DNA from: an uncultured Alphaproteobacteria bacterium
GTDB taxonomy: Bacteria; Pseudomonadota; Alphaproteobacteria; RF32; CAG-239
DNA length: 64,000 nt
Assembly (NCBI GenBank): GCA_944390885.1
Contig: CALXRP010000008.1
Coordinates: forward strand, 5,019 to 69,018
Reading direction: 5' to 3'
Positions 8,517-41,613 of the stretch are shown here, piece by piece (position 1 is the stretch's first letter; each line of letters starts with the position of its first letter). The notes beneath the pieces are model-generated. The model saw only the letters and a program-made list of their open reading frames with translations. It searched no databases and was not told where the DNA came from. A program made the translations under genes and the position numbers.

Positions 8517-9923
8517 ATGAATAACACTATGCTACACATGAAACTTAACTCTGCGGTGTCAACCTTTGCCGTTGCCGCTGCTTTCGCCGTCTTCCTCCCG
8601 CCTTCCAATGCTTCGGCAGGTGTTTGCTTTCTGCCCGACTGTCAGGATGATGAGGTTGTTCAGGGCGATATTAATATGGACATTAACGAAGATTCCAGAT
8701 TTTGTGAGGAGAAAGGCTATACCTATTATTCTTCCGGCGAATGTCCGCAATATCAGGCTAAAGTCGGTACTTGTTCCCGTGATGATCATTACCTGAAATG
8801 TGATGCCGTTACCTGGTGTAAGAACAACGGCTATAATACGCAAACCTGTTCTCTGCCGTCCTTCGTAGACGGACAATGTCCGAACGGCAAACCTTATTAC
8901 AAACAATGTAAAGAAGACCGGCCGAGAGCCTGCCGCGAACAAGGCTATGTCAATTCTTGTTCTTCCGGACGGCTTTATGCTACCTCAAACCGCTGTCCCT
9001 GGGATAATTCTTACGGTAAATGCTGCACCGCTTCTCCGTCGACAGGTTGTCCGACCGATTATAAGGTTACCTGTGATTCTTCCCGTGGATCATCCGGAAC
9101 GGATACCTGCGGATATACCTGTTATCGCTGCTGTGATGATACCTGCCCGTCCGGAACTTCTAAAAATTACACCGGATCATACTCAACAACAACCGAATGC
9201 GGTACCAGATGTAACAGATGTAAATCTTGTCCGTCCGGTTCCAGTACTTCTTATACCGGATCTTATGCCGGAACGACCGAATGTAACGGCGGACAAAGCT
9301 GTTATAAATGTAATGATACCTGTCGAACGGGAGAAAAATCGGTTTCTTGTTCCTCGACTTATAAAAAGGTAAAGGTATCAACAACCGAATGCGGAACAGG
9401 ATGTTATGAGTGTCAATATAATACAGATTGTAATGTTACATCAAAATCATGCACCTATGGTTGTGCCTATACTAACTCCTGCGGTAAATGTATATCCTGT
9501 AAGTCTCATAGCCATAGCTATTCCTGCCCCTCCGGCTATCAGTCATCTTCCTGCGGATCAGGTTATACAACATCGGGTACAGCATATAAAACATGTTCTT
9601 GTGGGGCAACTTCTGGGACTTGTTATAAGTGTACCAAAAATTCAAGTGGTGGTTCCGGCGGAGGATCTTGCTGGATTGAGCACTCTTACCCATTTTCATC
9701 TTGTGCATCATCCAAGCGGGCTTATAACTCCGTTGATAGCAGATTGGCATGTCATTCGCACTCCGGCGGATGGGGATTTGACTTCCAATATTATTGTGAA
9801 GATCCCAATAATTATCTTTGGGAAACCCGTTGGGATTCCACTTGGACATGCTATTTTGCAACAAAATCGGAATGTGAAGCTAATTATAATCATTTGGCTA
9901 GTGGATATATTACAAACTCATAA
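8517..9923 (+). CDS. Secreted cysteine-rich modular protein, paralog A (468 aa). It is a novel family with no confident functional assignment.
   Basis: A signal peptide is present (MKLNSAVSTFAVAAAFAVFLPPSNASA). About 80 Cys occur in repeated modules (…SGTSKNYTGSYSTTTECGTRCNRCKSC…). An RBS (ggaaggagacc) lies upstream and a strong terminator downstream. The protein is near-identical to the 40345-41613 product over its N-terminal ~200 aa. Confidence 0.7.
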   Translation: MNNTMLHMKLNSAVSTFAVAAAFAVFLPPSNASAGVCFLPDCQDDEVVQGDINMDINEDSRFCEEKGYTYYSSGECPQYQAKVGTCSRDDHYLKCDAVTWCKNNGYNTQTCSLPSFVDGQCPNGKPYYKQCKEDRPRACREQGYVNSCSSGRLYATSNRCPWDNSYGKCCTASPSTGCPTDYKVTCDSSRGSSGTDTCGYTCYRCCDDTCPSGTSKNYTGSYSTTTECGTRCNRCKSCPSGSSTSYTGSYAGTTECNGGQSCYKCNDTCRTGEKSVSCSSTYKKVKVSTTECGTGCYECQYNTDCNVTSKSCTYGCAYTNSCGKCISCKSHSHSYSCPSGYQSSSCGSGYTTSGTAYKTCSCGATSGTCYKCTKNSSGGSGGGSCWIEHSYPFSSCASSKRAYNSVDSRLACHSHSGGWGFDFQYYCEDPNNYLWETRWDSTWTCYFATKSECEANYNHLASGYITNS

Positions 9924-9933
9924 CAAATATAAA

Positions 9934-9962
9934 AAAGGCTCCCGAAAAGGAGCCTTTTTTAT
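9934..9962 (+). terminator. Rho-independent terminator after Cys-rich paralog A.
   Basis: The hairpin aaaaaaggctcccgaaaaggagcctttttt is followed by a T-run. Confidence 0.7.
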
Positions 9963-10317
9963 ATGCTTTTTTTATTCGTCAAATAAAATCCCGCCGGGCA
10001 AAAGGAATTTGTTTCATGTTTTGATAATATCTTTTGTTCTATTTTTATAATTAATTTTATTAATTAATATTGCGTATTAAAATCTGATTTCTCGGCCGGT
10101 TAAACTTATCCCCATTTTTTTGCACATAAAAAATTAAAAATTTTCATTCCTTTTCTATATATAGCCATCTTATCTAGAACACATACTATATATAGTATAC
10201 GCCATAAATTTTTCATAAAATACCATAATTTCCCATTGCATACCATATTTTCCCATGTTATATAATTACTTGTTAACGGTAACAAGGGGTATGGCATTGA
10301 GAAAAACTTTTCTCTTT

Positions 10318-10761
10318 ATGGATACGATTATCAACAAGGTCGACGCAAAAGGCCGCGTTTCCTTGCCCTCAGATTACCGCGCAATCGTTAAAGAATTATC
10401 AACCGAAATTGTCTGTTACCGCAGCCTCACATCCCCTTGTATAGAAGGCTGTCTGGAAGATTTGCTCGATAAGCTGGCAACAGACATGGAAAATTCGCTC
10501 GACTTTTTCTCTCAAACCCAGGATGATTTGACGAATCTGATTTTTGGTGATGCCAAGCGCTTTCCCTTTGATAGCACCGGACGCATTGTCTTGACCGAAA
10601 AATTGTTGAAACACGCACAGATTACCGATACTGCCGTCTTTGTCGGAAAAGGGCGCAAATTCCAAGTCTGGAACCCTGAAAATTGGGAAAAAGAAGAAGC
10701 GCGTATTCGTGCTGAAGTGCTGAAGAATCGGCCGTCTCTGGCGCCAAAGGAGAATGTGTAA
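10318..10761 (+). CDS. mraZ: Transcriptional regulator MraZ.
   Basis: The sequence MDTIINKVDAKGRVSLPSDYRAIV... is a typical MraZ N-terminus of tandem SpoVT/AbrB-like domains. The gene lies immediately upstream of rsmH. Confidence 0.75.
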   Translation: MDTIINKVDAKGRVSLPSDYRAIVKELSTEIVCYRSLTSPCIEGCLEDLLDKLATDMENSLDFFSQTQDDLTNLIFGDAKRFPFDSTGRIVLTEKLLKHAQITDTAVFVGKGRKFQVWNPENWEKEEARIRAEVLKNRPSLAPKENV

Positions 10762-11684
10762 TGATCCCCGGTGGTTATAAAAAACATTTTCCTGTAATGT
10801 TGAACGAGGTTTTGCAAAGCCTTGCGCCGCAAGACGGTAAAGTTTATGTCGATGCGACTTTTGGCAACGGCGGATATACCGAGGCTATTTTGAAAGCGGC
10901 GGATTGCAAAGTTATTGCTCTTGACCGTGACCCGAATGTTATCCCGCGCGCCGAAGAACTAAAATCTCTTTATGGTTCCCGTTTTGAGTTTCGTCCCGGA
11001 CAATTCGGCAATTTTGCTGAGCTCGTGTCCGAACAGATTGACGGGGCTGTTTTTGATATTGGTGTTTCCTCTATGCAGTTGGATGAAGCCGGCCGCGGAT
11101 TTTCTTTTTCCAAAGATGCTCCGTTGGATATGCGGATGTCTTGTTCCGGGACGAGCGCTGCTGATATTGTCAATAATACGGCAGAAAAAGACCTCGCGGA
11201 TCTGATTTTTAAGTATGGCGAAGAAAAAAAATCACGCCGGATTGCTGCCCGGATTGTTGAGGTACGTCAAAATAAACCCATTCAAACAACCAAAGAATTG
11301 GCCGAAATCATTTATTCGGTCATTCATAAAACTCCCAATGCCATTGACCCTGCAACCCGGACGTTTCAGGCGCTTCGGATTGCCGTCAACAATGAGTTGG
11401 AAGAACTTGAAAACGGCCTTGAAGGCGCGGCCCGCCGGCTCAATCCGGGCGGAAAGCTTGTGGTTGTGAGCTTTCATTCTTTGGAAGACCGCATTGTAAA
11501 GACCTTTTTCAAAAATAATGCCGGCCCCAGGCGCCATGTTTCGCGCTATCGGCCGCAGACAGAAACAATGGATAGCGATTCGTTGTTTGCCGAATGCTCA
11601 AAAGCGATTGTTCCGTCCCGGCAGGAAACCGAGATAAACAAACGTTCGCGTTCGGCCAAACTTCGTTTTGCCGTAAAAAGATAA
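10761..11684 (+). CDS. rsmH: 16S rRNA (cytosine1402-N4)-methyltransferase RsmH (MraW).
   Basis: The SAM-binding motif DATFGNGGYT and the full-length RsmH architecture are present. The gene sits in the mraZ-rsmH-ftsL-ftsI operon context. Confidence 0.85.
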   Translation: MIPGGYKKHFPVMLNEVLQSLAPQDGKVYVDATFGNGGYTEAILKAADCKVIALDRDPNVIPRAEELKSLYGSRFEFRPGQFGNFAELVSEQIDGAVFDIGVSSMQLDEAGRGFSFSKDAPLDMRMSCSGTSAADIVNNTAEKDLADLIFKYGEEKKSRRIAARIVEVRQNKPIQTTKELAEIIYSVIHKTPNAIDPATRTFQALRIAVNNELEELENGLEGAARRLNPGGKLVVVSFHSLEDRIVKTFFKNNAGPRRHVSRYRPQTETMDSDSLFAECSKAIVPSRQETEINKRSRSAKLRFAVKR

Positions 11685-11717
11685 TAAGAACGCATAACCC
11701 AGAAAGGAAAAAGCGAC

Positions 11718-12104
11718 ATGAATAGCACAAGATCTGCAACCTTTGCACTTTGGGTAACTCTTACCTTCCTGCTTGGTTCAGGCATATTGGTGATGAAGAA
11801 TCAGGTTCAGGATCTCGAAGACCAGCTGATCGGCATCAACAAAAATATTCAGGAGGATATCAAGACTATTCATATTCTCAAAGCAGAATGGAGCCATCTC
11901 AACTCTCCGAAACGCCTGCGTCAGCTTGCTGAAAAACATATTTCGTTAAATCCGGTTCGTGCTGAACAAATTATTAACTATTCTCAGGTACCATTCGATT
12001 ATGAGGGAGGAGAAGCCGACAAGCGGATGCTTGCCCAACGCAATATTTCGACTTACGCCGCCCGCAACAAAGAATTGAAAAAACTGGCAAAATTTGAACA
12101 GTAA
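11718..12104 (+). CDS. ftsL: Cell division protein FtsL-like (single-TM coiled-coil).
   Basis: It is a small protein with an N-terminal TM segment and a coiled coil. It lies in the conserved position between rsmH and ftsI. Confidence 0.6.
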   Translation: MNSTRSATFALWVTLTFLLGSGILVMKNQVQDLEDQLIGINKNIQEDIKTIHILKAEWSHLNSPKRLRQLAEKHISLNPVRAEQIINYSQVPFDYEGGEADKRMLAQRNISTYAARNKELKKLAKFEQ

Positions 12105-12124
12105 GCAGCGCAGAAGCAAAGGAT

Positions 12125-13876
12125 ATGTGGGGAAAATATTTATCCAGAGGCCGGCGGGGAAATTTCTACCTTCCGGGACAGGAAATCAAAATCAACAAGA
12201 GTATGGCCTTTAACATACTTTCTTGTGAGCAGGATTCTCTCTCGACCTGCAAAGCCCGTATGCTCTCGGCAATTGCTGTTTTTGCCTTTGTATATATTGT
12301 TATCGCAGTCCGCTTGTTTACCGTTTGCATCAGCGGAGAAGCCGAAAAAGCTTTTGCTGTAGAAGACAATCCTTATCTTCATGCCTACATGCCCAATCCG
12401 ATAAAACGTGCCGATATTTTGGATCGCAACGGAATTATTATTGCCACATCACTGCCGACGGTCAATTTGTTCGCCAATCCCAAAAAGATTTTAAATGCCA
12501 AAAGCGCAGCCGTCAAACTTAACCGGATTCTGCCGGAACTGCGCTACGAAGACATTCTGCAAAAACTGACCCGCAGAGGCAGTTTTGTTTACATCAAACG
12601 CAACCTGACACCGTCGCAGCAATATCAGATCAATGCTCTGGGGATTCCCGGTCTGGAATTTGAGAGCGGAGAAAAGCGTGTCTATCCGCACAAAGGACTG
12701 TTTGCCCATGTTCTGGGCAATACCAATATTGACAATCTCGGCATCTCCGGTGTGGAAAAAAAGTTAAACGCCCGGTTGACCGAATCGGATATTCCGCTGC
12801 AAATGACAATTGATGCCGGCATCCAGGATACGATTCGTGAGCATCTGAAAGCTGCCGTTGAAAAATATAACGCCCTGGGCGCAACCGCAATTTTAATGGA
12901 TGTCAACACCTCAGAAATCCTTTCCATGATTTCCCTTCCTGATTTTGATCCCAATGATACAAGCCGACTGAAACCGCAGCAAATGTTCAATATGGCAACC
13001 AAAGGCGTTTATGAACCGGGATCCGTGCTGAAAGTTTTTAATACGGCAATGTCTTTGGACAGCGGCAAGGTTAAAGTGTCAGATAAATTTGATGCCACTC
13101 AGCCGCTCAAGTTGCGTTATAACGTTATCAAAGACTATCGTGGAGAAAACCGCTGGCTTTCCGTTCCGGAAGTTTTGATCTATTCTTCCAATATCGGTTC
13201 GGCCAGAATGGCTTTTGCAGCCGGTGGTAAAGAAGAACAAATGGAGTTTATGAAGAAAATCGGCTTTCTGAAAGAGTTACCGATAGAAGTCCCCGAGCGA
13301 GGAAAACCACTGGTTCCGCGGCGCTGGGATGAAGGAACAATCGCCACGGTTGCGTTCGGCTATGGCCTGGCTGTAACGCCATTGCATGTAATTACCGGAT
13401 TTTCCGCTATGGTAAACGGCGGGATTTATCATGCGCCGACTTTGTTAAAACAAGACCATAAAGATCCCGGCAAACGCGTTATTTCTTATCAAACTTCCAA
13501 GTCAATGCGGGAGCTTTTGCGCCTGGTTGTTGTTGAAGGATCTGGCAAAAGGGCAAATGTCAAAGGCTATGAAGTTGCCGGAAAGACCGGAACGGCCAAT
13601 AAACTCTCGGAAAAAGGAAAATACGTCGACAAAAAAGTTCGGACGACGTTTGTTGCCGCTTTCCCGATCTCCAATCCCAAATATGCATTATTGGTGATGA
13701 TGGATGAGCCAAAAGCCACGCCGGAAAGTTGGGGATTTGTAACATCCGGCTGGAATACCGTGCCGACTGCCGGAAAAATCATTGAGGCCATTGCCCCGCA
13801 GCTTAATATTAAGGCCAATTATGACCTTGATGAACTGCGCAACACCCGAATTATTGAAGCCTCATATTCCAGATAG
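12125..13876 (+). CDS. ftsI: Peptidoglycan D,D-transpeptidase FtsI (PBP3).
   Basis: The PBP dimerisation domain and the transpeptidase motifs SxxK (…ATKGVYEPGSVLK), SSN (YSSNIGS) and KTG (AGKTGTA) are present. The start is uncertain; an ATG at 12203 is also possible. Confidence 0.85.
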   Translation: MWGKYLSRGRRGNFYLPGQEIKINKSMAFNILSCEQDSLSTCKARMLSAIAVFAFVYIVIAVRLFTVCISGEAEKAFAVEDNPYLHAYMPNPIKRADILDRNGIIIATSLPTVNLFANPKKILNAKSAAVKLNRILPELRYEDILQKLTRRGSFVYIKRNLTPSQQYQINALGIPGLEFESGEKRVYPHKGLFAHVLGNTNIDNLGISGVEKKLNARLTESDIPLQMTIDAGIQDTIREHLKAAVEKYNALGATAILMDVNTSEILSMISLPDFDPNDTSRLKPQQMFNMATKGVYEPGSVLKVFNTAMSLDSGKVKVSDKFDATQPLKLRYNVIKDYRGENRWLSVPEVLIYSSNIGSARMAFAAGGKEEQMEFMKKIGFLKELPIEVPERGKPLVPRRWDEGTIATVAFGYGLAVTPLHVITGFSAMVNGGIYHAPTLLKQDHKDPGKRVISYQTSKSMRELLRLVVVEGSGKRANVKGYEVAGKTGTANKLSEKGKYVDKKVRTTFVAAFPISNPKYALLVMMDEPKATPESWGFVTSGWNTVPTAGKIIEAIAPQLNIKANYDLDELRNTRIIEASYSR

Positions 13877-14037
13877 ATTCTTAGTTACTTTCTGTAAAAA
13901 TTTTTTTTGATTATAAATAAAGTGAAATAAAAAATTCCAAAATGTAACATTGACCATTTCCCGGCTCTGCAGTACAAGTGTTAGAGATTTATAAAGATTT
14001 TGGATATAAAGTATAATAAAAAAAGAAAGGGTAAAAA

Positions 14038-15051
14038 ATGACAAAGATTGCTGTTGCCGGAGCCCAGGACAGCCTGGGGCGCGAAGTTTTAAGTTTTTTG
14101 GAAGAAGACGGCATTTCGGCCGCTGATATTACGGCACTCGATTCTAAAGCACCGCTCGGGACAATGGTTTCCTATGGCGAAGATGATGAATTGGATGTTT
14201 TTAACCTTGATGATTACGATTTCAAAGGCATTGATATTGCCATATTCGCGACGCCTTCTGCCGTATCAAAACGTTTTATCCCAAAAGCCTTGAACCGCGG
14301 TGTAAAAGTCGTTGACTGCTCAGATGCATTTTTTTCCGAAGCCGATGTCCCTCTGGTTATTGCCGGGGTAAATGATGAAAAGATCATGGCAGCATCACGC
14401 GGCCTGGTTTCGATTCCTTCAGCGCCGGTAGCTCAAATGCTTTTGCCTTTGTCGGAAGTCCACAAAAATTATTCAATAAAACGGATTATCGCGTCTACTT
14501 ATTCGTCCACTTCCATTTATGGTAAAGACGCCATGGATGAACTTTTTAATCAGACCCGCAAAATTTTTATGAACGATACGCTTGCCGATGATCAAAAAGT
14601 TTTTCACAAACAAATTGCGTTCAATGTTATTCCTCAGGTAGAAGAATTTATCGGTGATGAAACGGCCTGTGAATGGGCAATAAATGCACAGACCAAAAAA
14701 ATCTGGGGCGGCGATATCAAAATCCATGCCAATTGCGCGGTTATTCCGGCTTTTATCGGCTCAGCACAATATGTAAACGTTGAATGCGCCTCGGAAGTCG
14801 ATGTTGATGAAGTCAGAAAACTGATGAAGGCAACCAAAGGCGTTGTTGTTTTTGACAAGAACGTTGATGGCGGCTATGTAACGATTAACGATGTTCAGGG
14901 CGAGAGCGAAATTTATGTCAGCCGTCTGCGCCAGGATGTTTCTGTTGATAACGGTTTTAGCTTTTGGTGTGTCGCCGACAATCTGCGCGCCGGCATTGCC
15001 AAAAACGCTTTTGAAGTTATGAAACTGATGCTGGCGGCCACAAAACATTAA
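14038..15051 (+). CDS. asd: Aspartate-semialdehyde dehydrogenase family protein with non-canonical cofactor and active-site motifs. It may be a catalytically altered homolog.
   Basis: The protein is collinear with the ASD fold, matching Gram-positive/alpha-type Asd at …PLVIAGVNDE… and …STY…G…. Three canonical motifs are degenerate here. GATGAVG is GAQDSLG, NPNCST is IPSAPV, and QAVSGAG is SSTSIYG. Confidence 0.6.
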   Translation: MTKIAVAGAQDSLGREVLSFLEEDGISAADITALDSKAPLGTMVSYGEDDELDVFNLDDYDFKGIDIAIFATPSAVSKRFIPKALNRGVKVVDCSDAFFSEADVPLVIAGVNDEKIMAASRGLVSIPSAPVAQMLLPLSEVHKNYSIKRIIASTYSSTSIYGKDAMDELFNQTRKIFMNDTLADDQKVFHKQIAFNVIPQVEEFIGDETACEWAINAQTKKIWGGDIKIHANCAVIPAFIGSAQYVNVECASEVDVDEVRKLMKATKGVVVFDKNVDGGYVTINDVQGESEIYVSRLRQDVSVDNGFSFWCVADNLRAGIAKNAFEVMKLMLAATKH

Positions 15052-15072
15052 CAAAGGAAAGGGCATTAAGGC

Positions 15073-17556: not shown

Positions 17557-18901
17557 AAATATCCTGCTCTGGGGCTTGGGAACGGAAGGAACATCCGTGC
17601 TGGAATATTTGCAAAAACATAAGCTTGCCAGACAAATTTTTGTTTACGGAGACAAAGCCTTTGACCTTCCTGAAAAATATAAAAATATGAAAGTCTTTGT
17701 CGGAGATGAATTAAAAGATATTTTGCCTCAGACGGACATAATTATCAAATCTCCCGGCGTCAGCATGTATCGCGATGAGTTGGTGCGCGCCAAATCAGAC
17801 GGGATAGAAGTAACATCTTCTTCGGATATTTTTTTGGACGAAGTCCGCACAAACCAGCCGCAATGCAAAATTATCGGTGTCAGCGGTTCTAAAGGAAAAA
17901 GCACCAGCGTGTCGGCCATGTATCATATGATGAAAGCACAGGGGCTGAATGTCGGACTGGGCGGAAATATCGGCAAGCCGATGATTGAATTGATTGACGG
18001 AAAATATGATTATGCCGTTTGCGAATTTTCAAGTTATCAGGCCGCCGATTTGCATAATTCGCCGCATCTGGCCATGTTTACCAACTTGTACTATGTTCAT
18101 AGTGATTGGCATCACGGGCACGAGAACTACTGCCGGGACAAAATCCATCTGATTGCCAATCAGCGGGAAGAAGATTCGTTTTTTGTAAACGATCGTAATG
18201 AGCAGTTAAAGCAATATTGTGCGCCTTATACCGGCAAAAATAAAAAATTCTATAATCAGCCGCAAAATTTTCATGCCGAAGGACGGGAACTTTATTGGCA
18301 GGATAAACTGCTGCTCAATATTAATGAGCTCAAAATCAGCGGCAATCATAATCTTGATAATCTTGCCGGTGTTTTTTCAATCCTCAACGAGCTCGGCCTG
18401 GATATTTATGCTGCAGTTGAAGCGTTGAAAAGTTTTGAGCCGCTGGAACACCGCCTGCAAAAAGTAGCAAGGTACAATGGCGTGTTGTTTATTAATGACA
18501 GCATTTCGACGGCGCCGGAAGCGGCCATCGGCGGAATGAAAAGTTTTGACGAAGATTTGGTGCTGATTTCCGGAGGGCAGTATCTGGAACAAAATTATGA
18601 TGATTATGCCCGCTATGTGCAGGAAAATCCAAAAGTCAAAATGGTCTGCGCCTTATATCAAAGCGGCCCTTATCTGGCTGATGCCATAAGAAAATTCGTA
18701 ACGCGCAAAGACTTTATTTTGTTGCAGCCCAAAACCTTGGAAGAAGCCGTTTTGGAGGCCTATAAAACTTTAACGGCCGGCAAAGGGGGAATAGTGCTGT
18801 TTTCTCCGACAGCGCCAAGCTTCGGCGTTTATAAAAACTTTGTGGAGCGCGGCAGACATTTTATTGATACCGTAAACGGCCTGATTAATATTGCCAGGTA
18901 A
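17531..18901 (+). CDS. murD: UDP-N-acetylmuramoylalanine--D-glutamate ligase MurD. It stands alone, separated from the rest of the dcw cluster.
   Basis: The N-terminal Rossmann motif (ILLWGLGTEG) and the Mur ligase P-loop (GVSGSKGKSTS) are present. The start was chosen at ATG 17531 (MLLKNLQNK…), which overlaps the preceding gene. Confidence 0.7.
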   Translation: MLLKNLQNKNILLWGLGTEGTSVLEYLQKHKLARQIFVYGDKAFDLPEKYKNMKVFVGDELKDILPQTDIIIKSPGVSMYRDELVRAKSDGIEVTSSSDIFLDEVRTNQPQCKIIGVSGSKGKSTSVSAMYHMMKAQGLNVGLGGNIGKPMIELIDGKYDYAVCEFSSYQAADLHNSPHLAMFTNLYYVHSDWHHGHENYCRDKIHLIANQREEDSFFVNDRNEQLKQYCAPYTGKNKKFYNQPQNFHAEGRELYWQDKLLLNINELKISGNHNLDNLAGVFSILNELGLDIYAAVEALKSFEPLEHRLQKVARYNGVLFINDSISTAPEAAIGGMKSFDEDLVLISGGQYLEQNYDDYARYVQENPKVKMVCALYQSGPYLADAIRKFVTRKDFILLQPKTLEEAVLEAYKTLTAGKGGIVLFSPTAPSFGVYKNFVERGRHFIDTVNGLINIAR

Positions 18902-18907: not shown

Positions 18908-20863
18908 TTATGCCAGACGGTCTCTGATTCCATGCAGCAGTTTCAGGTCATGGTGAGCATCAGCAGGCGTGTTTTGGAATGCAAAATCAAGACTTGCAAT
19001 TAGGGAACTTTTAACGAGTTCAGCCAAATTTATCTCACGGCAGATCGGTGTTTCTTTTTCCCGGTCCAGAAATTCTGCAATATTTCTGAGCAAATCCAAA
19101 TATTGGCTGAAATCATCTTCAAAAAGTTCGTTCAGTCCTGTTTGTAAAAGCATTTTTTTTGACAATCCCCAAAGCTGGGCAATAGCTGCCGGAATATTAT
19201 AAAGCATATCTTGTGATAGTTTTTCTGGATCAAAAAAAGCCTTCAAATAAAGAATGCCGATGAGCGTCTTTTTGATTCTTTGCGTATATTGTCTGACAAT
19301 ATCGCGGTGTTTTTCTCCCAGAAAATAATTTCCCAAAACGTCTCTGTTCCAAATTTCGGACAATAACAGTTCCGTTTCATAGTTAGAAAATTTGTTAAAT
19401 TCTTTCACAATCCGTTCAATAAACAGATTAAGGTGCTTTGCGGCGTCTTCGGGATATAAAACAAAAATAACGCAGCTGTAACGGCTGAATACCGGCATAA
19501 TATTAAAAATATCCGAAAACAAGTCTTCTTCCGGTACTTTAAGGATTTTTTCTGCGGGGGCTAACAGCTTTTCAATATCTCTCTGCCGCATGTTATAAAG
19601 TTTTTCTGCTTTGATTTTGAAAATTCTTTGCTCAAAATCAGTCAGCTCATCTTGCTCTTCGGGATAAAGTTCATTTTTAAATTTGGTATAATCAAATTTA
19701 TCTCCCAGAATAAATTTTTCCAGCTCGGGAAAGTAAACAAGATTATGATAATTGTCATCAAAAGCAAGCATTTCGATAACATCTTCCGGTTTCAGTTCGT
19801 CAGGGGCATCGCGGTTAATCTGATAATAACGGCTGTTACTGATCAGTGCGTTTTTTCCGAGTTCATTTAAAAAACTGATTCTGATAATATAGCGAACCGC
19901 CATATAATAATTATCCGGCAGATGATGAAATTTCTTTACTTCCTTACAAAAACGTTTGACATTGCGTAAAACCCTCTTGCAAATTCTAAAGTTTTTTGCC
20001 AGCACCGGAGAATATTCCGGCATTTCTAACTGTGTATAAAAACGCAAAAAAACTTCGCGCGCTTTGGGATAATCACTAAGCTTTTCTTTAACCTCCCGAA
20101 CAAAATCATATCCTTCAATTTTCTTAAAATAATAATCAAAGACCTTTTCTTTATACAAAATATCGGGAGCTGTCGTTTCATCTGTTTTTTGTAAGGCATG
20201 ATAGTTGGCGATCACCAAAATTTTCATCTTCCGCTCTTTGCTCAATTTAGAAAAATAAGCCAAAGCCTCTTTTTTTACGTTATCGTCTGATAAACGTTCA
20301 AAGTCATCAAAACAAATAACAGAGCCGTCTTTAATCAACATATTGATCAAAAGGTCTTTGGGGCTCTGCCCGATGTATTTATAGAATATAAAATCAAAAA
20401 TCGTAAAAGCATGCCATGCTGCCCAGCCTAATACAAAAACAAGAAAGCCGAGAAAAATAAAGCAATAAAAGCTGTTAAAATTTTCCCAAGGCGTTAAATT
20501 AAAGAATTTTTCTTGATAAGGGAAAGAAAAATAAAAACTTGAGAGCAAAAATATCAAAAAGAGCAAAGCCCGCCCGACCGGATGGTTGTTTTGCCTGATA
20601 TAATCGGAAATCAGTGCTTCTTTTATCGCATCGGTATTTTTCAGACCAAACAGAGAAACATAATATTTTTTATCAGCGGTAAGAGCAGGGGCAATATGAT
20701 GAAGCCAGTCATAAGTTTTTCCAATTCCCCAAATCCCGTCATACAAAACGACAACGCCGTCGGAGGTATTGTTAAAAATATCGGAAATGTTATTGGTTGT
20801 TTGCATATCGGTCATTATCATTTCTCTTTTTTGCAAAAGCAGGAATAGCCCGATTGTCCTCAA
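18908..20863 (-). CDS. KAP family P-loop NTPase with a transmembrane insertion.
   Basis: The Walker A motif GIWGIGKT is typical of KAP NTPases (GxWGxGKT). Three or four hydrophobic helices are inserted into the NTPase domain. The protein is 651 aa. Confidence 0.6.
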   Translation of the reverse strand: MRTIGLFLLLQKREMIMTDMQTTNNISDIFNNTSDGVVVLYDGIWGIGKTYDWLHHIAPALTADKKYYVSLFGLKNTDAIKEALISDYIRQNNHPVGRALLFLIFLLSSFYFSFPYQEKFFNLTPWENFNSFYCFIFLGFLVFVLGWAAWHAFTIFDFIFYKYIGQSPKDLLINMLIKDGSVICFDDFERLSDDNVKKEALAYFSKLSKERKMKILVIANYHALQKTDETTAPDILYKEKVFDYYFKKIEGYDFVREVKEKLSDYPKAREVFLRFYTQLEMPEYSPVLAKNFRICKRVLRNVKRFCKEVKKFHHLPDNYYMAVRYIIRISFLNELGKNALISNSRYYQINRDAPDELKPEDVIEMLAFDDNYHNLVYFPELEKFILGDKFDYTKFKNELYPEEQDELTDFEQRIFKIKAEKLYNMRQRDIEKLLAPAEKILKVPEEDLFSDIFNIMPVFSRYSCVIFVLYPEDAAKHLNLFIERIVKEFNKFSNYETELLLSEIWNRDVLGNYFLGEKHRDIVRQYTQRIKKTLIGILYLKAFFDPEKLSQDMLYNIPAAIAQLWGLSKKMLLQTGLNELFEDDFSQYLDLLRNIAEFLDREKETPICREINLAELVKSSLIASLDFAFQNTPADAHHDLKLLHGIRDRLA

Positions 20864-21538: not shown

Positions 21539-21624
21539 TTTAATGGCCGGAGTTTTTAAACACCGCAAATAAAAATGGTGCCGATTGCGTGACTCGAACA
21601 CGCGACCCACGCATTACGAATGCG
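21539..21624 (-). repeat. Direct repeat duplicating the 3' half of tRNA-Thr plus ~35 bp of its downstream flank. It looks like an att-site scar.
   Basis: The ~85 bp at 21539-21624 are identical to 21797-21881. The identical stretch covers the last 49 nt of the tRNA, including CCA, and then diverges. Confidence 0.75.
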
Positions 21625-21832
21625 CTGAGGATAAAAAAGTTGACTTAACGTCAATTTTTTTTACCGCAAGAAGCTTTTTTGTTAATCAGCCGGAGCCGGG
21701 TAGGCAACGGCGGATGTTACAAGAAAGCTGACCGCAGCGAGTTAATGTTTAAAACATTTACGAGCCAGAGCTAGCAACGCAAAAACTTCGGCAATTTTAA
21801 TGGCCGGAGTTTTTAAACACCGCAAATAAAAA

Positions 21833-21908
<76 letters not shown>

Positions 21909-34284: not shown

Positions 34285-34693
34285 ACAGGCAATGCGGGCG
34301 GCGACGGAAGAAGACGTTTCAACGCCGCCCGATTCTCTGGTACTGTATAGCATAAGCTACCAGCCGACGGAAGAAAACAAAGACAAAGCTTTTGCTTATC
34401 TGCAAAAAAATCCGCAGGCGATGATGATTGACCAAACGCCCTGCGGCCGAAAATTGATTGCGCTGGGAATGTTGGAAGATTCCCTGCCAAAAGAACAGAT
34501 AACGGAAGTCTGGCGCGTGGCAAGCCGCCGTTTGATTGCCTCGGCTGAGGGAAACATAACGGCTTTTGTAGACAACGCCGACAAACGCAGCGTCTTTCGG
34601 GGAGAAGAGCTTCCCGGATTGTTAAAAAATCCTAAAGTCAAAACCATAAACGGTATGGATAAATTTGCTTTTGCCACCCGGTTTAAGGACTAA
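34247..34693 (+). CDS. Hypothetical protein. The start is uncertain and overlaps the clpB 3' end.
   Basis: A 140-148 aa ORF follows clpB. No domain was recognised. Confidence 0.35.
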
Positions 34694-34866
34694 GTTTTTA
34701 TCCTCGTGTGCTTCTGCCAACGACAAACAAAAAATAAAACTCCCGAATGAAATAACACCGGGAGTTTTCTGTTTTTATGTCTTATGATATAATTAATCCT
34801 GATCTGTATAACAATAAAAAAAATCCCCATTCAATTGAATGGGGATCTGTATCTTCCAAAGACAAA

Positions 34867-35352
34867 TTATTCTTTGGTAAAAGCCTTAGCCTGTTTTTTA
34901 GCTTCGTCTTCCGTTCTGGCAACATTAACCAGAATAGTCTGAGAAACTTCCGGATGCAGGTTGAGTTTAACTTCATAAACGCCCAGATCTTTAATGGAAT
35001 TTTCCAAGAAAACCTGACGACGTTCAACTTCAAAACCGGCATTTTTAATTGCGGAGGCAATGTCACGGATAGTAACAGAACCATACAATTGTCCGGTTTC
35101 GGCAGCCTGACGGATCAGGGTAGCACTGAAGCCTTTCAAAGATTCGGCAATTTCGGAAGCCTTATCAAACAAAGCTTTGTTATGAGCTTCGAGCTGAGCT
35201 TTCTGCTTTTCAAAATAAGCAACATTTGCTTCGGTAGCGCGCAAAGCTTTTTTAGTCGGGAGCAGGTAGTTGCGGGCATAGCCGTTTTTAACCGTAACCT
35301 GATCACCCATTCTGCCCAGTTTATCAACATGTTCAAGAAGAATAACTTTCAT
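34867..35352 (-). CDS. rplI: 50S ribosomal protein L9.
   Basis: The N-terminus MKVILLEHVDKLGRMGDQVTVKNGYARNYLLP matches L9. Confidence 0.9.
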   Translation of the reverse strand: MKVILLEHVDKLGRMGDQVTVKNGYARNYLLPTKKALRATEANVAYFEKQKAQLEAHNKALFDKASEIAESLKGFSATLIRQAAETGQLYGSVTIRDIASAIKNAGFEVERRQVFLENSIKDLGVYEVKLNLHPEVSQTILVNVARTEDEAKKQAKAFTKE

Positions 35353-35366
35353 ATCTGTTCTCCTCC

Positions 35367-35594
35367 TTAATCTGCAACAAACGGAAGCAGGGCCAAATAA
35401 CGCGCACGTTTAATGGCGCGGGCCAGTTCTCTTTGCTTTTTGGCCGAAACAGCAGTAATGCGGCTCGGAATGATTTTGCCTTTCTCGGAAATATATCTGG
35501 AAAGCAGTTTAACATCTTTATAATCGATCTTCAAACCGTCTTCACCGGAGAAAGGACAAGCTTTTTTTCTTCTGAAGAATACTTGTTTAGCCAT
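35367..35594 (-). CDS. rpsR: 30S ribosomal protein S18.
   Basis: The sequence [41 protein letters not shown] matches S18. Confidence 0.9.
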
Positions 35595-35940
35595 TAGTTT
35601 GCCTCCTGTTCTTCGCTGGTTTCAGAAGAAGAATTGGCAGCATCTTCACTGCTCAGTTCATCAACTTTAACCGTCATATAACGGATAACGTCTTCGTTGA
35701 ATCTCATCAGTCTCTCATATTCCGCAATAGCGGCAGCCGGAGCTGAAATATTCAGGACAACATAGTGGCCTTTACGATTCTTTTTAATACGGTAAGCAAG
35801 GTTTTTCAAACCCCAGTTATCAACTCTGACAACTTCTCCGCCGTTCTTTTTGATGGTTTCGCTCAGATCGGAAACCAAAGAGCTGACTTGAGAAGCGCCG
35901 AGATCCTGACGTGCAATCAGCACGCTTTCATAAAATGACA
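35594..35940 (-). CDS. rpsF: 30S ribosomal protein S6.
   Basis: The N-terminus [26 protein letters not shown]… matches S6. The start was chosen at the internal ATG that aligns with S6 N-termini. The TAA stop overlaps the rpsR ATG. Confidence 0.85.
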
Positions 35941-36225
35941 TATATAAAATCTCCTTATGGATTCTCAACAAATGCCCCGGTTGCGGGGCGGGTTCTTGTA
36001 TAGCCGAAAGCCAAAACCTCCAGCAAGGGACAAGCGCACTATATATCAAATCTTTCAATTTGCAAGCATTTTCTTTGTATAAAACCGATATTTTTCCTTA
36101 AGATATGTCAAAAGACAAGAGCCTTTTTTGCTCAGTCTTATCCACAAGCCGGAGAAAAAGACTTGTATTTATATAATATTAATATTTTTGTTCTAGCCTA
36201 AACTCATAAAAACAACGGGTGGAAT

Positions 36226-36588
36226 ATGTCGGAAAAAATAAGATTTTTGTTAGGGCTGGTAGGAATTTGTGCGGCAAGCGCCTGCACCAATCTGGACGGT
36301 TTGTGCCCGCATTGCTATCCGCCGAAGAACCGCTATGTCTACCTGCGTGATAAAACCTATGCCAATGACGAACCCGTCATCCCTCTTCAAAATCTGATGA
36401 GCCGCACGGTTGTTTATTGCCACTCCACAGAAACAAACAGCGCCGAAACCTGTGCCGAAGTTTTTGAAAGCAATGGATATGTGCGTGTTCGGGATATCCC
36501 TTACAAAACGGCGGATTATGATTTCTTAAAAAACGATACTTACCCGACCCGCCGTTGGCGTAATGACGAGCTGACCCCGAGATGGTAG
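36226..36588 (+). CDS. Small Cys-containing lipoprotein of unknown function.
   Basis: A lipobox (ICAASAC) is present in a 120 aa ORF. Confidence 0.45.
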   Translation: MSEKIRFLLGLVGICAASACTNLDGLCPHCYPPKNRYVYLRDKTYANDEPVIPLQNLMSRTVVYCHSTETNSAETCAEVFESNGYVRVRDIPYKTADYDFLKNDTYPTRRWRNDELTPRW

Positions 36589-36598
36589 GAGAAAAGCC

Positions 36599-38122
36599 AT
36601 GCTCGCCAGAATAAACACCATCACATTCAACGGGCTGGAAATTCTTGATGTCGATTTGCAAATTCAGGTCACCTCAGGTCTTCCGGCCTTTAATATTGTC
36701 GGCCTGCCGGACAAGGCCATTGCCGAAAGCCGGGAACGCGTTCGAGCAGCGTTGCAGTCAATCGGACTGGCATTGCCGGCCAAACATATCACCATCAATT
36801 TATCTCCGGCCGATTTATATAAGGAAGGTTCTCATTTTGATTTGCCGGTAGCATTAGGCCTGATGGCCGTGATGGGCGTTATCCCGAATGAAATGCTGCT
36901 GGGCTACATTGCTCTGGGTGAGCTCGGATTGGACGGATCAATAATCCCGGTCAACGGCGTTCTGCCGGTGGCAATCAAAGCCGCAAGACAGGGAAAGGGG
37001 CTGATTTGCCCGCAGGCGCAGGGTAGTGAGGCCGCTTGGTCTGGGTTAAAAGAAATTGTGGCGGCGGACAATTTGCTGAGCCTGATAAACCATTTTAAGG
37101 GAACGCAGCTGCTGCCGTATCCCCGCCGCCGGACTGCCGAAGCCGGGTACTCCGGTTTAGATATGTCCGAAGTCAAAGGACAGGAAAGCGCTAAAAGAGC
37201 TTTTGAAATTGCGGCTGCCGGCGGACATAATCTGCTGATGGTCGGGCCTCCGGGCTCCGGAAAATCAATGCTTGCCGCCCGGATGCCGACGATTTTGCCG
37301 CCGCTGAGCCCGGAAGAAGCGCTTGAAACCAGCATGATTCATTCCGTCGCCGGTATTTTGAAAGACGGAAAAATTTGTTTTGAGCGCCCATACCGCGATC
37401 CCCACCACACATCCTCAACGCCGGCTTTGGTCGGCGGCGGACGCAAAGGCCAACCCGGAGAAATTTCTCTGGCGCATAACGGCGTTTTATTTCTTGATGA
37501 ACTGCCCGAATTCAGCCGCCCGACGCTCGAGGCGCTTCGCCAGCCGTTGGAAAACGGCACGGTCAGCATTTCCCGCGTTCATGCCCATACGACTTTCCCT
37601 GCGCGTTTCCAATTGATTGCCGCCATGAACCCCTGCCGCTGCGGATATTTAGGATCAAAAGGGCAGGAATGCGCAAGAGCTCCTTTGTGTGCGGCAGAAT
37701 ATCAGGCCAAACTTTCCGGCCCGTTGCTGGACCGGATTGATATGTATATCGAGGTTCCTGCCGTCAGCCCGTGGGATCTGGCAAATGTTAAAAAAGGCGA
37801 AAGCTCAGAAACGATTCGGTCCCGAGTCGTTGCCGCCCGAACGCTGCAAAAACAACGTTTTATCAAATTCGGGCATCCGGAATTGCATACAAATGCCGAA
37901 TTGAATGGTGAAATTTTAGAAAAAATAGCCGGACTTGACGATGAAGCAAAGTCGCTGCTGATAAGCTTTTCAGAGAAAAACAAGCTTTCAGCGCGCTCTT
38001 ATCATCGAATAATTCGTCTATCAAGAACAATTGCAGACTTGCAAAATAAAATAAATGTGAGTAGAATACACGTCGCAGAAGCATTGTCTTATCGCCGCAT
38101 TCTGCCAAATAAACGCATTTAG
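36599..38122 (+). CDS. comM: Mg-chelatase-like AAA+ ATPase YifB/ComM.
   Basis: The N-terminal Lon-like domain (…ESRERVRAALQS…) is followed by an AAA+ domain with Walker A (GPPGSGKSM) and a C-terminal Mg-chelatase ChlI-like region. Confidence 0.85.
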   Translation: MLARINTITFNGLEILDVDLQIQVTSGLPAFNIVGLPDKAIAESRERVRAALQSIGLALPAKHITINLSPADLYKEGSHFDLPVALGLMAVMGVIPNEMLLGYIALGELGLDGSIIPVNGVLPVAIKAARQGKGLICPQAQGSEAAWSGLKEIVAADNLLSLINHFKGTQLLPYPRRRTAEAGYSGLDMSEVKGQESAKRAFEIAAAGGHNLLMVGPPGSGKSMLAARMPTILPPLSPEEALETSMIHSVAGILKDGKICFERPYRDPHHTSSTPALVGGGRKGQPGEISLAHNGVLFLDELPEFSRPTLEALRQPLENGTVSISRVHAHTTFPARFQLIAAMNPCRCGYLGSKGQECARAPLCAAEYQAKLSGPLLDRIDMYIEVPAVSPWDLANVKKGESSETIRSRVVAARTLQKQRFIKFGHPELHTNAELNGEILEKIAGLDDEAKSLLISFSEKNKLSARSYHRIIRLSRTIADLQNKINVSRIHVAEALSYRRILPNKRI

Positions 38123-38134
38123 GAGACCAAAATA

Positions 38135-40294
38135 ATGAATTTTAAAAAGTCCTTAAGTATTTTCTTTGCCGCAGGAATACTGGGATCTTGCGCTTGGGAA
38201 AGCCCCGAGCTGATTCCCTGCGCCTGCAACAATCTGGCAGAAAGCGACCTTGGTTGGTTTACCTGCCTTTGCGGGTCTGACGGCCAGGTAAAAGAAAAGA
38301 GAAAAGTTGCCAAAAAGCAGGAAGTCCGCAGACAGGAACCCCGCAAACAGGTTAAACAAGTCAAAAAGACGGTAGTTCGCAAACAAGAACAAGTTTATCG
38401 TCCCGAGAGAGTTGTTGTTGAACGCACCCGCCGGGTTGCTCCTGCACCGCTGCCGTATTGCGATGAAGAGCCCGTTGTTCGCAAAAAATATACCCAAAGG
38501 ACTTTTGTTGCCGCAGATGTTGAAGAACCCCAATTGACTCGGGATGATCTGGCCTCCTTAAAACTCGAGTATGTTGATTTTCGTCTTGAAAACGGCGGCA
38601 GACAATATGATACCAAATTGGGCGATTATCGTTTCCGCATTTTCGGCTGCCGCAGAGAAAGCCGGAACGTGTTCCTGAATCAGGGGCGCGCCATGGAAAA
38701 AGATATGCGCTTCTTTGATATCTTTTTTGAAAATATGAATGAACTGTATCCGGTTGTTGTCGATCGTAACAGCCCGTTGTACGAGGTTTCTGACCGTATC
38801 CGCGTGCCGGAATATCTGTTGACGGCCGAAATTGTCGACTATCATATGAATATTTGTGATGAATTTGACTGGAACAATACTCAAAAGAAAAATACCCGCA
38901 CCGGAAGTTCGGAAATCACTATCGTATGGCGGTTAATGGATTTGTGCAAAACCCATGTATATTGGAAAGGAATGACCAACGGTTATGCCGAGGTAATGAG
39001 CGGTGAGCCGAATGGTGAAACCCTGTTGGTAGAGCGCGCATTCAGCGATGCCTTAAAACAGCTGCCGTATGTTTCCGGATTTGAGGAACAGATGACCAAA
39101 CGCGTCAGCCCCGAAGACCTGATGGCTCAACAGCGCTGCTGGGATACTTTGGAACAACGTGCCGAAACTTTCCAATGCGAATACAAAAAAGAAATCAGCC
39201 GTGCTGCAGACGAGCCGGTATATTATGAAAGCCCCTGCATTGAAGAAAGAAGCAGCTCCCGTTCAACAAATTATGTAATTGAGGATATCATTGAAGAAGA
39301 CGGCGGTGCTTTTGCCGAAGGGCGTTCTTTCCGTGAAGAAATCAAAGAGCGCGGCGGATCAGATTCTGACGGCAGCGTTTTCCGCAGCCAGATTATTGAA
39401 GACGGCGGTTCGTTTTCTTCCGGTGAAAGTTTCAAACCGGTCAAACCGAGAGAAAACCATGCTTTTGTTGAAGATTACTGGGTAGACGTTCCTCTTGACA
39501 AAGAAGTCAGTCAGGAAGTCATTGAAAATCGTGAGATTGTCGAAGATGCATTGATGAAAGATAAAAACAGCCTCTGCATTATGGCTCAGCGTCCATATAA
39601 TAAATTGACGCCGGAAACACTGTATCGCGTCCGTGCTTCAATTGTTGAGGTTAGCAATCCTTCCGGCAAAAAAGGTTCCGGACTTCTGATCTCCGACCAG
39701 TTCATCTTAACGTCGGCAGATCTGCTAAACAAAAATAACAACCGTTTTGACATCAAGACCATTAACGGCAAAGAAATGGCAGCATCTGCTTTTCGTGTAA
39801 ACCCAAACAAAAATGTAGCTTTGCTGTTGTTGGACAACAAAACGCAGTATAAACCGCTGCCGTTGACTTTGGATTTGCCGGAAGTTAACAAAGATGTATT
39901 AATGACCTTGGGCATGAAAGACCTGGCAGAAAGCGAAGGCTATCTGGATAGCAACGCCCGTGTTATCGGCTATCGTTACTCTCCGGAAAGAGGTGCCGAG
40001 ATTATGGTCAGCACCCGCGTTCAAAACCAAACCTTGGGCGGTGCTCTGCTGGATAAAAATGCCAACATCGTTGGTATGGCACATGCCGGCAAGAGAATGT
40101 CCGACGGACCGGATTTGTTTATCCCGATTGAAACGGCGATGAAGGCTTTGGATCTGACATTCTGTAACAAGCCGTTCACCAACGAAGCGCCTTGGGAAGA
40201 AGAAGTCAAACCGGCAACTCCGGTAGCAACAGCCATCGATACGGATAAGACGGATAAAGCCCCTGTCCCGATGGATGCCAAAGAGGCGAAGTAA
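38135..40294 (+). CDS. Large lipoprotein with a basic repeat region, an acidic repeat region, and a C-terminal trypsin-like (S1/DegP-like) domain whose catalytic triad appears substituted.
   Basis: A lipobox (ILGSC) is present. The basic region is K/R/Q-rich (KEKRKVAKKQEVRRQEPRKQVKQVKK…). The acidic region carries repeats of IIE(E)DGG.F..G.SF. The C-terminal region (…GSGLLISDQFILTSADLL…NVALLLLDN…QTLGGALLDKNANIVGMAHAG) aligns to the trypsin-fold motifs TAAHC, D and GDSGG. In this alignment His appears replaced by Asp and Ser by Leu. Confidence 0.5.
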   Translation: MNFKKSLSIFFAAGILGSCAWESPELIPCACNNLAESDLGWFTCLCGSDGQVKEKRKVAKKQEVRRQEPRKQVKQVKKTVVRKQEQVYRPERVVVERTRRVAPAPLPYCDEEPVVRKKYTQRTFVAADVEEPQLTRDDLASLKLEYVDFRLENGGRQYDTKLGDYRFRIFGCRRESRNVFLNQGRAMEKDMRFFDIFFENMNELYPVVVDRNSPLYEVSDRIRVPEYLLTAEIVDYHMNICDEFDWNNTQKKNTRTGSSEITIVWRLMDLCKTHVYWKGMTNGYAEVMSGEPNGETLLVERAFSDALKQLPYVSGFEEQMTKRVSPEDLMAQQRCWDTLEQRAETFQCEYKKEISRAADEPVYYESPCIEERSSSRSTNYVIEDIIEEDGGAFAEGRSFREEIKERGGSDSDGSVFRSQIIEDGGSFSSGESFKPVKPRENHAFVEDYWVDVPLDKEVSQEVIENREIVEDALMKDKNSLCIMAQRPYNKLTPETLYRVRASIVEVSNPSGKKGSGLLISDQFILTSADLLNKNNNRFDIKTINGKEMAASAFRVNPNKNVALLLLDNKTQYKPLPLTLDLPEVNKDVLMTLGMKDLAESEGYLDSNARVIGYRYSPERGAEIMVSTRVQNQTLGGALLDKNANIVGMAHAGKRMSDGPDLFIPIETAMKALDLTFCNKPFTNEAPWEEEVKPATPVATAIDTDKTDKAPVPMDAKEAK

Positions 40295-40299
40295 TTATA

Positions 40300-40340
40300 A
40301 AATAAAAACCCCGGAAGCGTAAAACTTCCGGGTTTTTCTT
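40300..40340. terminator. Bidirectional rho-independent terminator between convergent genes.
   Basis: The hairpin aaaccccggaagcgtaaaacttccgggttttt lies between the two convergent ORFs. Confidence 0.65.
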
Positions 40341-40344
40341 TTCC

Positions 40345-41613
40345 TTATTTGCACAGGTCTGCAGCAACAGCTTCGGCTTCAGCTTTTCCTGAATCACAAG
40401 AGTCATTCTTATAATTGGCCCAACATTCTTCCGGAGTGGAATAGCCGTTAACTCGGGTATGATAATATTTAACAAATTGTCCATTTTTATAAAGACTATG
40501 AGAACAAGTTGCAGCCACTGTCTGTGGAAATTTTAGATACCAGTGATAAGTTTCGTTCCTGTTATCTTGACAATTGGAGGCATAGCTTTGATGTGTTACA
40601 GAGTAGGTACATGGAGGTTCAGCCGGCTTAGATTTACAAGAAGTACATTTACCACAGGAGTTGGTAGAAGCACAACCATAATCGCAGGATTTTGAAGACA
40701 CAGAACAATCGGAATTATACTCGCAAGAATAGCAAGCCGTCCCGCATTCGGTTGTCGATACGCGGGTTTTTACATAATTGGAAGAGCAAGATACGGATTT
40801 CTGACCTGAGCGGCAGGTATCGGAACAAGCATAGCAGCTTCCGCACTCTGAAGATCCAACATAAGATCCGGTATAAGACCGGCTGCCGGAAGTACAGTCT
40901 TTACATCTGTTACATCTGGTACCGCATTCGGTAGTAGAAGCATAAGATCCGTGATAGTTTTTAGAAGTACCGGACGGACAGGTGTCATCACAGCAGCGGT
41001 AACAAGTATATCCGCAGGTATCTACACCGGACGAACCGCGGGACGGATCACAGGTGACTTTGTAACTGGACGGACAACCTGTCGACGGCGAAGCAGTACA
41101 ACATTTACCATAAGAATTATCCCACGGACAACGGTTTGTCGATTTATACAACCGTCCCGGAGAACAGGAGTTGACATATCCTTGTTCGCGGCAGGCTCTC
41201 GGCCGGTCTTCTTTACAACCCTTGTAATAAGGTTTGCCGTTCGGACATTGGTCGTTAACAAAGGACGGCAGAGAACAGGTCTGCGTATTATAGCCGTTAT
41301 TCTTACACCAGGTAACGGCATCACATTTCAGGTAATGATCATCACGGGAACAAGTACCGACTTTAGCCTGATATTGCGGACATTCGCCGGAAGAATAATA
41401 GGTATAGCCTTTCTCCTCGCAATACTCGGTATCGGAGTTGATGTTCATATTAATATCGCCCTGAACAATCTCATCATCCTGACAGTCCGGCAGAAAACAA
41501 ATGCCAGCTGAAGCATTGGAAGGCGGGAGAAAGACCGCAAAAGCAGCGGCAACAGCAAGAACCGACACCGCAGAGTTAAGTTTCATGTGTAGCATAGTGT
41601 TATAATTTTTCAT
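40345..41613 (-). CDS. Secreted cysteine-rich modular protein, paralog B (≈415-422 aa).
   Basis: The signal peptide and first ~200 aa match paralog A at >90% DNA identity. The same Cys-rich modules are present, with a divergent central and C-terminal part. Confidence 0.7.
   Translation of the reverse strand: MKNYNTMLHMKLNSAVSVLAVAAAFAVFLPPSNASAGICFLPDCQDDEIVQGDINMNINSDTEYCEEKGYTYYSSGECPQYQAKVGTCSRDDHYLKCDAVTWCKNNGYNTQTCSLPSFVNDQCPNGKPYYKGCKEDRPRACREQGYVNSCSPGRLYKSTNRCPWDNSYGKCCTASPSTGCPSSYKVTCDPSRGSSGVDTCGYTCYRCCDDTCPSGTSKNYHGSYASTTECGTRCNRCKDCTSGSRSYTGSYVGSSECGSCYACSDTCRSGQKSVSCSSNYVKTRVSTTECGTACYSCEYNSDCSVSSKSCDYGCASTNSCGKCTSCKSKPAEPPCTYSVTHQSYASNCQDNRNETYHWYLKFPQTVAATCSHSLYKNGQFVKYYHTRVNGYSTPEECWANYKNDSCDSGKAEAEAVAADLCK

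Follow-up and report, generated by a model that had tools for sequence, protein, structure and literature searches.

Two genes that stand in opposite orientation on either side of about 32 kb of core genes, in the genome of an uncultured alphaproteobacterium, belong to an undescribed, lineage-restricted family of cysteine-rich secreted proteins of uncultured gut Alphaproteobacteria. They were analysed within 64,000 nt of contig CALXRP010000008.1 (GenBank assembly GCA_944390885.1; positions 5,019 to 69,018 of the forward strand), and this whole stretch is referred to here as the window. The genes, called A and B, are most probably members of a recombining family of variable proteins, in which similarity between copies is kept up by selection and by the conversion of short patches. 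The inverted orientation of the pair would then be incidental, and the interval between them no invertible switch.

A repeat search of the whole window recovered A and B as inverted arms of 726 nt that are 87% complementary, with a second, weaker pair collinear with them at 77% (Table 1). Similarity tails off by about 1 kb, with short further matches in the upstream regions. The inverted repeat is genuine and far beyond chance. An earlier, sequence-only reading had located this cysteine-rich pair correctly, on opposite strands, and had described the genes between them accurately, from mraZ through murD and clpB to the ribosomal genes. The interval carries mraZ, rsmH, a penicillin-binding protein gene, murD, clpB, the genes for S6/S18/L9, comM, and a gene for a trypsin-like protease. 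The identity given at that time, more than 90% over about 600 bp, is too high for the nucleotide sequences; it roughly agrees with the 90.6% measured over the first 215 residues of the proteins, which make up the N-terminal domain (N-domain). Over their first 328 amino acids the two proteins are 84% identical, and beyond this point their C-termini are unrelated. Nucleotide identity ranges from 78 to 100% in 60-nt windows, and the longest exact run common to both genes is 119 nt.

These two genes are the only family copies inside the window, and to call them a duplication, as had been done, is misleading. Synonymous divergence (dS) between them amounts to 0.44 for the N-domain and to 0.68 when 330 codons are compared, nonsynonymous divergence (dN) is 0.065–0.10, and dN/dS is about 0.15. 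Judged by dS, these two copies are old, and a genome holds about 20 of the kind. A recent segmental inverted duplication of one gene with its upstream region, without continuing exchange, could account for the high similarity over the 5' kilobase and for the leader motifs in common. This history is nevertheless extremely improbable, given the synonymous divergence, C-termini that are unrelated, leaders that differ in length and type, and identity profiles that are mosaic. In addition, the roughly 20 further copies per genome share the same anatomy, and other species have a gene of the family at the B locus.

The family itself is narrow, since an exhaustive profile search of 1.84 billion representatives returned only 178 clusters (at 50% identity). 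Among 5.8 billion proteins searched, 490 homologues were found, and all those with a named source are hypothetical proteins from metagenome-assembled genomes (MAGs) of uncultured Alphaproteobacteria. When one genome per species was scanned, 122 copies were found, confined to six species genomes and often lying at contig ends. The hosts of genomes with family copies include human, mouse, and water deer, whose gut samples yielded the MAGs. Neither A nor B has a match in Pfam or NCBIfam, even at E=1 and E=0.1. Exact-sequence look-ups of A, of the long MraZ open reading frame (ORF), and of the protein P0005 returned no record, and a search of the literature for this family turned up no description.

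Alignment of the family shows four parts: a signal peptide; the N-domain of about 215 amino acids, with many invariant cysteines; cysteine-rich repeat modules of the type CPSGTSKNYTGSY..TECG..C..C, which extend to about residue 330; and hypervariable C-termini, which in A and B have no domain match in Pfam. An AlphaFold2 model built on a 27-sequence family alignment reached a mean predicted local distance difference test score (pLDDT) of 52, and the N-domain fell below 50. Its confident part is limited to residues ~205–335, where β-hairpin repeat modules are predicted at a pLDDT of 72–85. Foldseek comparison of the model with the PDB gave no match below E=2.8, which makes a fold assignment impossible. 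The family profile likewise found no solved relative in the PDB, its sole match being a chance one to a 27-residue peptide (E=0.45).

Distant, longer members (P0154, P0156, P0159, and P0164; 750–1843 amino acids) combine a match to the family profile near the N-terminus with the Pfam domain Lcl_C, the C-terminal domain of the Legionella collagen-like adhesin. An adhesin-like role of the family outside the cell is hinted at by this combination, which would also fit an extracellular scaffold with a variable head, although A and B, unlike Lcl-type adhesins, carry neither Lcl_C nor any other known domain. A place at the cell surface would be a plausible setting for these proteins. A polymorphic toxin system was also considered, and was rejected because there is no immunity gene: downstream of A lie a terminator and mraZ, and downstream of B a terminator and the convergent protease gene.

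Gene conversion among family copies is well supported by comparison between strains, all comparison sequences being metagenome assemblies, probably from short reads. Alleles of B from strains whose flanks are 97–99% identical differ by a dS of 0.36–0.76, as against 0.026–0.058 in the adjacent protease gene. Their identity swings from about 70% to 100% across successive 60-nt windows, and B alleles are often nearer to alleles of the A locus than to other B alleles. The excess of dS reaches into the single-copy, locus-specific C-terminus. Across species the family shows concerted evolution. Genes at the B position of other species are 61–75% identical to B in the N-domain, as against 90.6% between A and B and 96.6% between the CALXUP gene at this position and a second CALXUP paralogue, and the nearest relative lies within the same genome for 35 of 64 copies. 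The C-termini, for their part, track the 3' flank and so stay linked to their locus. The excess dS, the mosaic alleles, and the concerted evolution together bear out the earlier suggestion that gene conversion drives variation here.

The closest comparison is with scaffold_198, which was compared over 2 × 20.4 kb and has no difference from the window in the ~40 kb outside the variant parts of A and B. All differences between the two sequences are confined to one tract in each gene (Table 1), and the variant patches resemble the other paralogue or other alleles. A clean reciprocal swap of patches between A and B was rejected, as the site patterns require at least a third donor. Slipped-strand phase variation was rejected as well: the frameshift in the B allele of L086 (contigs and loci are cited by such numbers) is a 38-nt deletion rather than a homopolymer change. 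This frameshifted allele (~9390–9400 in L086) is either a pseudogene or an assembly error.

On this evidence, A and B would be independent and complete members of a dispersed, clade-confined family of secreted, disulfide-rich proteins. Purifying selection, as the dN/dS suggests, would maintain similarity in the N-domain, and repeated short-patch conversion among roughly 20 paralogues would homogenise the 5' regions within each genome and make the alleles of strains mosaic, with the C-terminus remaining locus-specific. Homologous recombination between units, presumably of the RecA type, would occasionally swap flanks, with crossovers wherever identity suffices, be it in the leader, in a 29-nt block at the start of the coding sequence, or in the gene body. 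Diversification may be favoured by selection from host immunity or phage. The inverted placement of A and B on either side of the core genes (32 kb) would have no special role.

The sequence-only reading had instead proposed a potentially invertible segment: recombination between A and B would flip the 32 kb and could exchange 5' ends or promoters. An active system of this kind would work reversibly and vary expression. Such an inversion predicts two junctions, RecN-Cys-Trypsin_2 (reversed) and SmpB-Cys-MraZ, where Cys stands for the family gene. The census was made on contigs that carry exactly the SmpB, MraZ, RsmH, or BamD of the window, or the 120-residue protein encoded beside comM. Neither junction occurs in about 20 distinct informative conspecific contigs, which are consensus assemblies and as such miss rare subpopulations. 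On the B side, the order SmpB-Cys-Trypsin_2-ComM is found in the window and in 11 distinct contigs, and L087 has SmpB-Cys-FlgI. Other species have the arrangement SmpB-Cys-Trypsin_2 as well; L067 carries it complete, and L023 and L075 show part of it at the ends of contigs. On the A side, RecN-(Cys)-MraZ is found in five contigs besides the window (scaffold_198, L107, L110, L093, and L106). One of these, L110, has a quite different family member of 567 amino acids within the same recN/mraZ boundaries, and two (L093 and L106) join RecN to MraZ without any family gene, with the same terminator directly after recN. Two contigs, scaffold_198 (112 kb) and scaffold_637 (52 kb), span the whole distance from A to B in the orientation of the window. 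A metagenome scan with RsmH yielded other species alone. In the two contigs with long flanks from that scan (L126 and L127), BamD and RecN lie upstream of mraZ on the opposite strand, and the locus holds no match to the family gene.

The two strains without A have a replacement of their own. Within the same boundaries (7724/10102 in the window), L093 (9152–9805) and L106 carry an unannotated minus-strand ORF of 154–156 amino acids in place of the A unit, and a remnant of the 3' end of this ORF survives in the window at about 9965–10020.

An active inversion has several points in its favour. The arms, with their longest exact run of 119 nt, are long and similar enough for RecA; the 5' ends face outwards, so that a crossover would rejoin intact genes; and family genes are the breakpoints of other exchanges. 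It is nonetheless very unlikely. The predicted junctions are missing from the informative contigs, the B junction is conserved across species, and two strains do without A altogether. Each of the two genes has its own promoter-like site and terminator, so flipping the segment would switch nothing, and an inversion between A and B would lack regulatory effect; no ON/OFF logic is available. The window ORFs covered by a Pfam scan or by annotation on matching contigs include no recombinase family, and this coverage of the window is not exhaustive. MutS is encoded in the window (51953–54682) and would hinder recombination across arms that are 13% diverged. Finally, the segment comprises about 29 genes, mostly on the plus strand, and most of the window has positive GC skew; an inversion would consequently place most of these co-oriented genes on the other strand and probably reverse their orientation relative to replication. 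Rare, unfixed inversions between A and B could still go unseen in short-read assemblies.

Exchanges of flanks do occur at family genes elsewhere. The MAG GCA_964316325.1 holds both reciprocal products of one such exchange, RecN→Cys→RimB (L108) and RsfS→Cys→MraZ (L091), and the switch in similarity between them maps exactly to the 29-nt block. Other swaps are RecN-Cys-MurJ (L105), SmpB-Cys-FlgI (L087), and the TyrS-side and LepA-side flanks at the FlgI locus (L116). RecN also lies near Cys-MurJ in another species, independently. Breakpoints elsewhere fall in the leader (L116 compared with L115), after the signal peptide (L087), or around the whole unit (L110). Because they are spread over the unit in this way, they point to general homologous recombination rather than to one specific site. 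The evidence for conversion, together with these exchanges, indicates that the underlying idea of recombining paralogues was right, even though the 32-kb inversion found no support in the contigs compared.

A and B have the same 29-nt block (coding nucleotides ~13–41). Across 78 copies, the 17-nt core of this block is ~100% invariant, three synonymous positions included, a figure that carries ascertainment bias because the copies were chosen by the motif itself. As a separate observation, a distant second family member in a water-deer MAG (L023, 7645–8268), with an N-domain 44% identical, lies just past S6/S18/L9 and marks the end of synteny with the window; another family gene thus stands at a synteny break.

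Several points weigh against the interpretation preferred here. Chimeric paths through repeats could yield some of the mosaic patches and some of the flank swaps, the differences between the window and scaffold_198 fit recent conversion and an assembler artefact equally well, and consensus contigs cannot reveal an inversion at low frequency within a population. Moreover, any function of the protein is putative, and the predicted structure is poor and has no structural match. Taken further, these concerns would make the apparent recombination (mosaics, flank swaps, and scaffold_198 differences) largely a short-read assembly artefact of a repeated family. Many contigs do end within family genes, the window equals scaffold_198 except within A and B, and the 119-nt exact run is common to both genes. 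Because the material consists of metagenome assemblies with contig breaks inside genes and with this long run, some of the mosaics, the scaffold_198 differences, and possibly some joins may indeed be chimeric. As a general explanation, however, an artefact is unlikely. The crossover block of L108 and L091 is ~30–45 nt, probably below the final k-mers to be expected (the assemblers were not recorded), and one MAG contains both reciprocal products. The mosaic changes over about every 60 nt and lacks long exact overlaps, and the excess of dS extends to a C-terminus that is single-copy and locus-specific. The independent case of RecN near Cys-MurJ in another species, and concerted evolution across six independently assembled genomes, also speak against it.

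Alignment of several loci gave a common upstream layout of the transcription unit, with a sigma-70-like promoter (TTGACT-17-TATAGT), a leader of 300–600 nt with hairpins and half-sites, and a ribosome-binding site (RBS). Each of the copies that were examined comes with a promoter-like site, an RBS, a start codon, and a terminator of its own. The promoter-like sites match the consensus at 11 of 12 positions in A and 10 of 12 in B. Comparison of the leaders with Rfam gave no match at the gathering threshold or at E≤1. The half-site GTCATyssCGGr occurs 13 times in the window, where 0.1 would be expected, and every occurrence belongs to one of three clusters, of which two are upstream of A and B and the third is a geneless array at 50.1–50.4 kb. 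The 600 nt that precede family genes show about 25-fold enrichment of this motif in six other species. Variants of the palindrome preserve complementarity of the stem (CCCCGGG/CCCGGGG, TCTCGGG/CCCGAGA, and TGCCGGG/CCCGGCA). The upstream motifs quoted in the sequence-only reading are present in both leaders, as had been claimed, but they are not private to A and B, being part of these clusters of palindromic elements.

Table 1. Features of the window discussed in the text (positions in nt, counted from the first letter of the window)
Feature	Position	Strand	Remarks
Unit A promoter, sigma-70-like	7909-7937	+	TTGACA-17-TATTAT, TG extension
Unit A leader	7938-8516	+	Module 8027-8116, hairpin 8131-8158, half-sites 8308 and 8336, RBS
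Inserted element, ~110 nt, in unit A leader	8194-8307	+	Sits in the loop of a hairpin element
Left inverted arm	8513-9238		Weaker extension, 9375-9506
Family gene A	8517-9923	+	468 amino acids; signal peptide, cysteine-rich N-domain of ~215 residues, CxxC-type repeat modules to about residue 330, locus-specific C-terminus
29-nt block of A, start of coding sequence	8529-8557	+	ATGCTACACATGAAACTTAACTCTGCGGT; crossover point of the L108/L091 exchange
Variant tract of A	8936-9245	+	All 42 differences from ERZ28615593 scaffold_198
Terminator after A, bidirectional hairpin	9927-9964		Directly after recN in strains without A
Terminator between trypsin-like protease gene and B, bidirectional	40310-40332		
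Family gene B	40345-41613	-	422 amino acids; architecture as A, different locus-specific C-terminus
Right inverted arm	40886-41611		Weaker extension, 40630-40761
Variant tract of B	41095-41566	-	All 41 differences from scaffold_198
29-nt block of B	41567-41595	-	Invariant
Unit B leader	41614-41913	-	Hairpin elements; half-sites 41669, 41696, 41723, 41863
Unit B promoter, sigma-70-like	41914-41942	-	TTGACT-17-TATAGT, TG extension
Orphan leader-like palindromic array, no family gene	50109-50440	-	81-85% identical to the array upstream of B

Two observations concern individual leader sequences. The element inserted in the leader of A has copies that are 93–96% identical in loci of other species (L002, L004, L008, and L079) and is also present upstream of B in the strain L082. 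It has no Rfam match and its fold energy is not unusual; from its distribution it looks like a small mobile element. The orphan array is a variable site, at or inside which the homology of L083 and L084 to the window stops. Beyond it, these contigs carry an autotransporter or a gene for 461 amino acids, as against a histidine kinase in the window.

The nearest known analogues are the surface-protein families that vary by gene conversion, which include Neisseria pilE/pilS, Borrelia vlsE, Anaplasma msp2/p44, Treponema tprK, and Helicobacter bab/sab. The resemblance lies in the many paralogues with conserved and variable segments, in mosaic alleles whose synonymous divergence greatly exceeds that of their flanks, and in homogenisation within genomes. 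In contrast to those systems, the copies of the A/B family examined include neither a single expression site nor silent promoterless cassettes, and they are scattered among core genes. Here it is the N-domain that is converted and mosaic, and the C-terminus that stays linked to its locus. Furthermore, switching within a clone is a trait of the known systems, whereas the A/B family was compared across assemblies.

Systems that work by site-specific inversion, such as Mycoplasma vsa/vsp/vpma, the Hin/Gin invertases, the invertible promoters of Bacteroides, and shufflons, offer a second comparison. Like them, the family has a short 5' sequence that is invariant among the copies compared, a set chosen by this motif, one reciprocal exchange exactly at this block, and some copies in inverted orientation. 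Unlike them, it shows no recombinase gene among those ORFs of the window that are annotated, its other breakpoints lie in the leader, in the gene body, or around the whole unit, and the two orientations of A and B are not found together. The arms of the pair are also of gene length, rather than 10–30 bp. Copies of rrn operons and of insertion sequences (IS) are inverted repeats that drive large chromosomal inversions by homologous recombination. A and B share the geometry of such substrates, and the flank exchanges at other copies resemble the products. The product of recombination between A and B themselves was not observed, however, and a divergence of 13% separates their arms, in contrast to the near-identity of rrn and IS copies. 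As for the upstream arrays, they recall repetitive extragenic palindromes and bacterial interspersed mosaic elements (REP/BIME), or miniature inverted-repeat transposable elements (MITEs), in that they are short palindromes with conserved stems, clustered with half-sites. They differ from these in being concentrated in the leaders of family genes, not spread over intergenic regions.

The family bears marks of antigenic or ligand variation, namely a ten-fold excess of synonymous divergence, mosaic alleles, and concerted evolution. A tentative possibility, less likely than not, is a genuine surface-variation system in a gut commensal of humans and animals, made up of ~20 fully expressed, scattered genes for disulfide-rich secreted proteins, with continuous patch conversion within the genome and with occasional chromosomal rearrangements through the 5' block, which may even be a dedicated recombination site. 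If this is true, it would represent an architecture for surface variation that does without silent cassettes, unlike the classical systems of pathogens. The family occurs in human, mouse, and ruminant-type samples and marks breakpoints of synteny, and it offers a handle on surface variation in a poorly known commensal lineage. It also explains why the MAGs of this clade are fragmented at family genes, and it serves as a warning that MAG consensus sequences of these genes may be chimeric.

The remainder of the window holds further features of interest. A direct repeat of 89 nt (99% identity; 21539–21627 and 21796–21884, spacing 257 nt) copies the 3' part of tRNA-Thr(CGT) (21833–21908, minus strand), so that a partial copy lies beside the intact gene; the partial copy may have been left behind by an integration in the past. 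A bacterial class A RNase P RNA was identified at 3950–4350 (268 bits), between flagellar hook genes and lpxC. Candidate host-interaction genes are also found nearby: one for an ankyrin-repeat protein (56121–56795), one for an autotransporter of 961 amino acids (60018–62903), and one on the minus strand for a protein of 651 amino acids (18908–20863) that has no Pfam or NCBIfam match.

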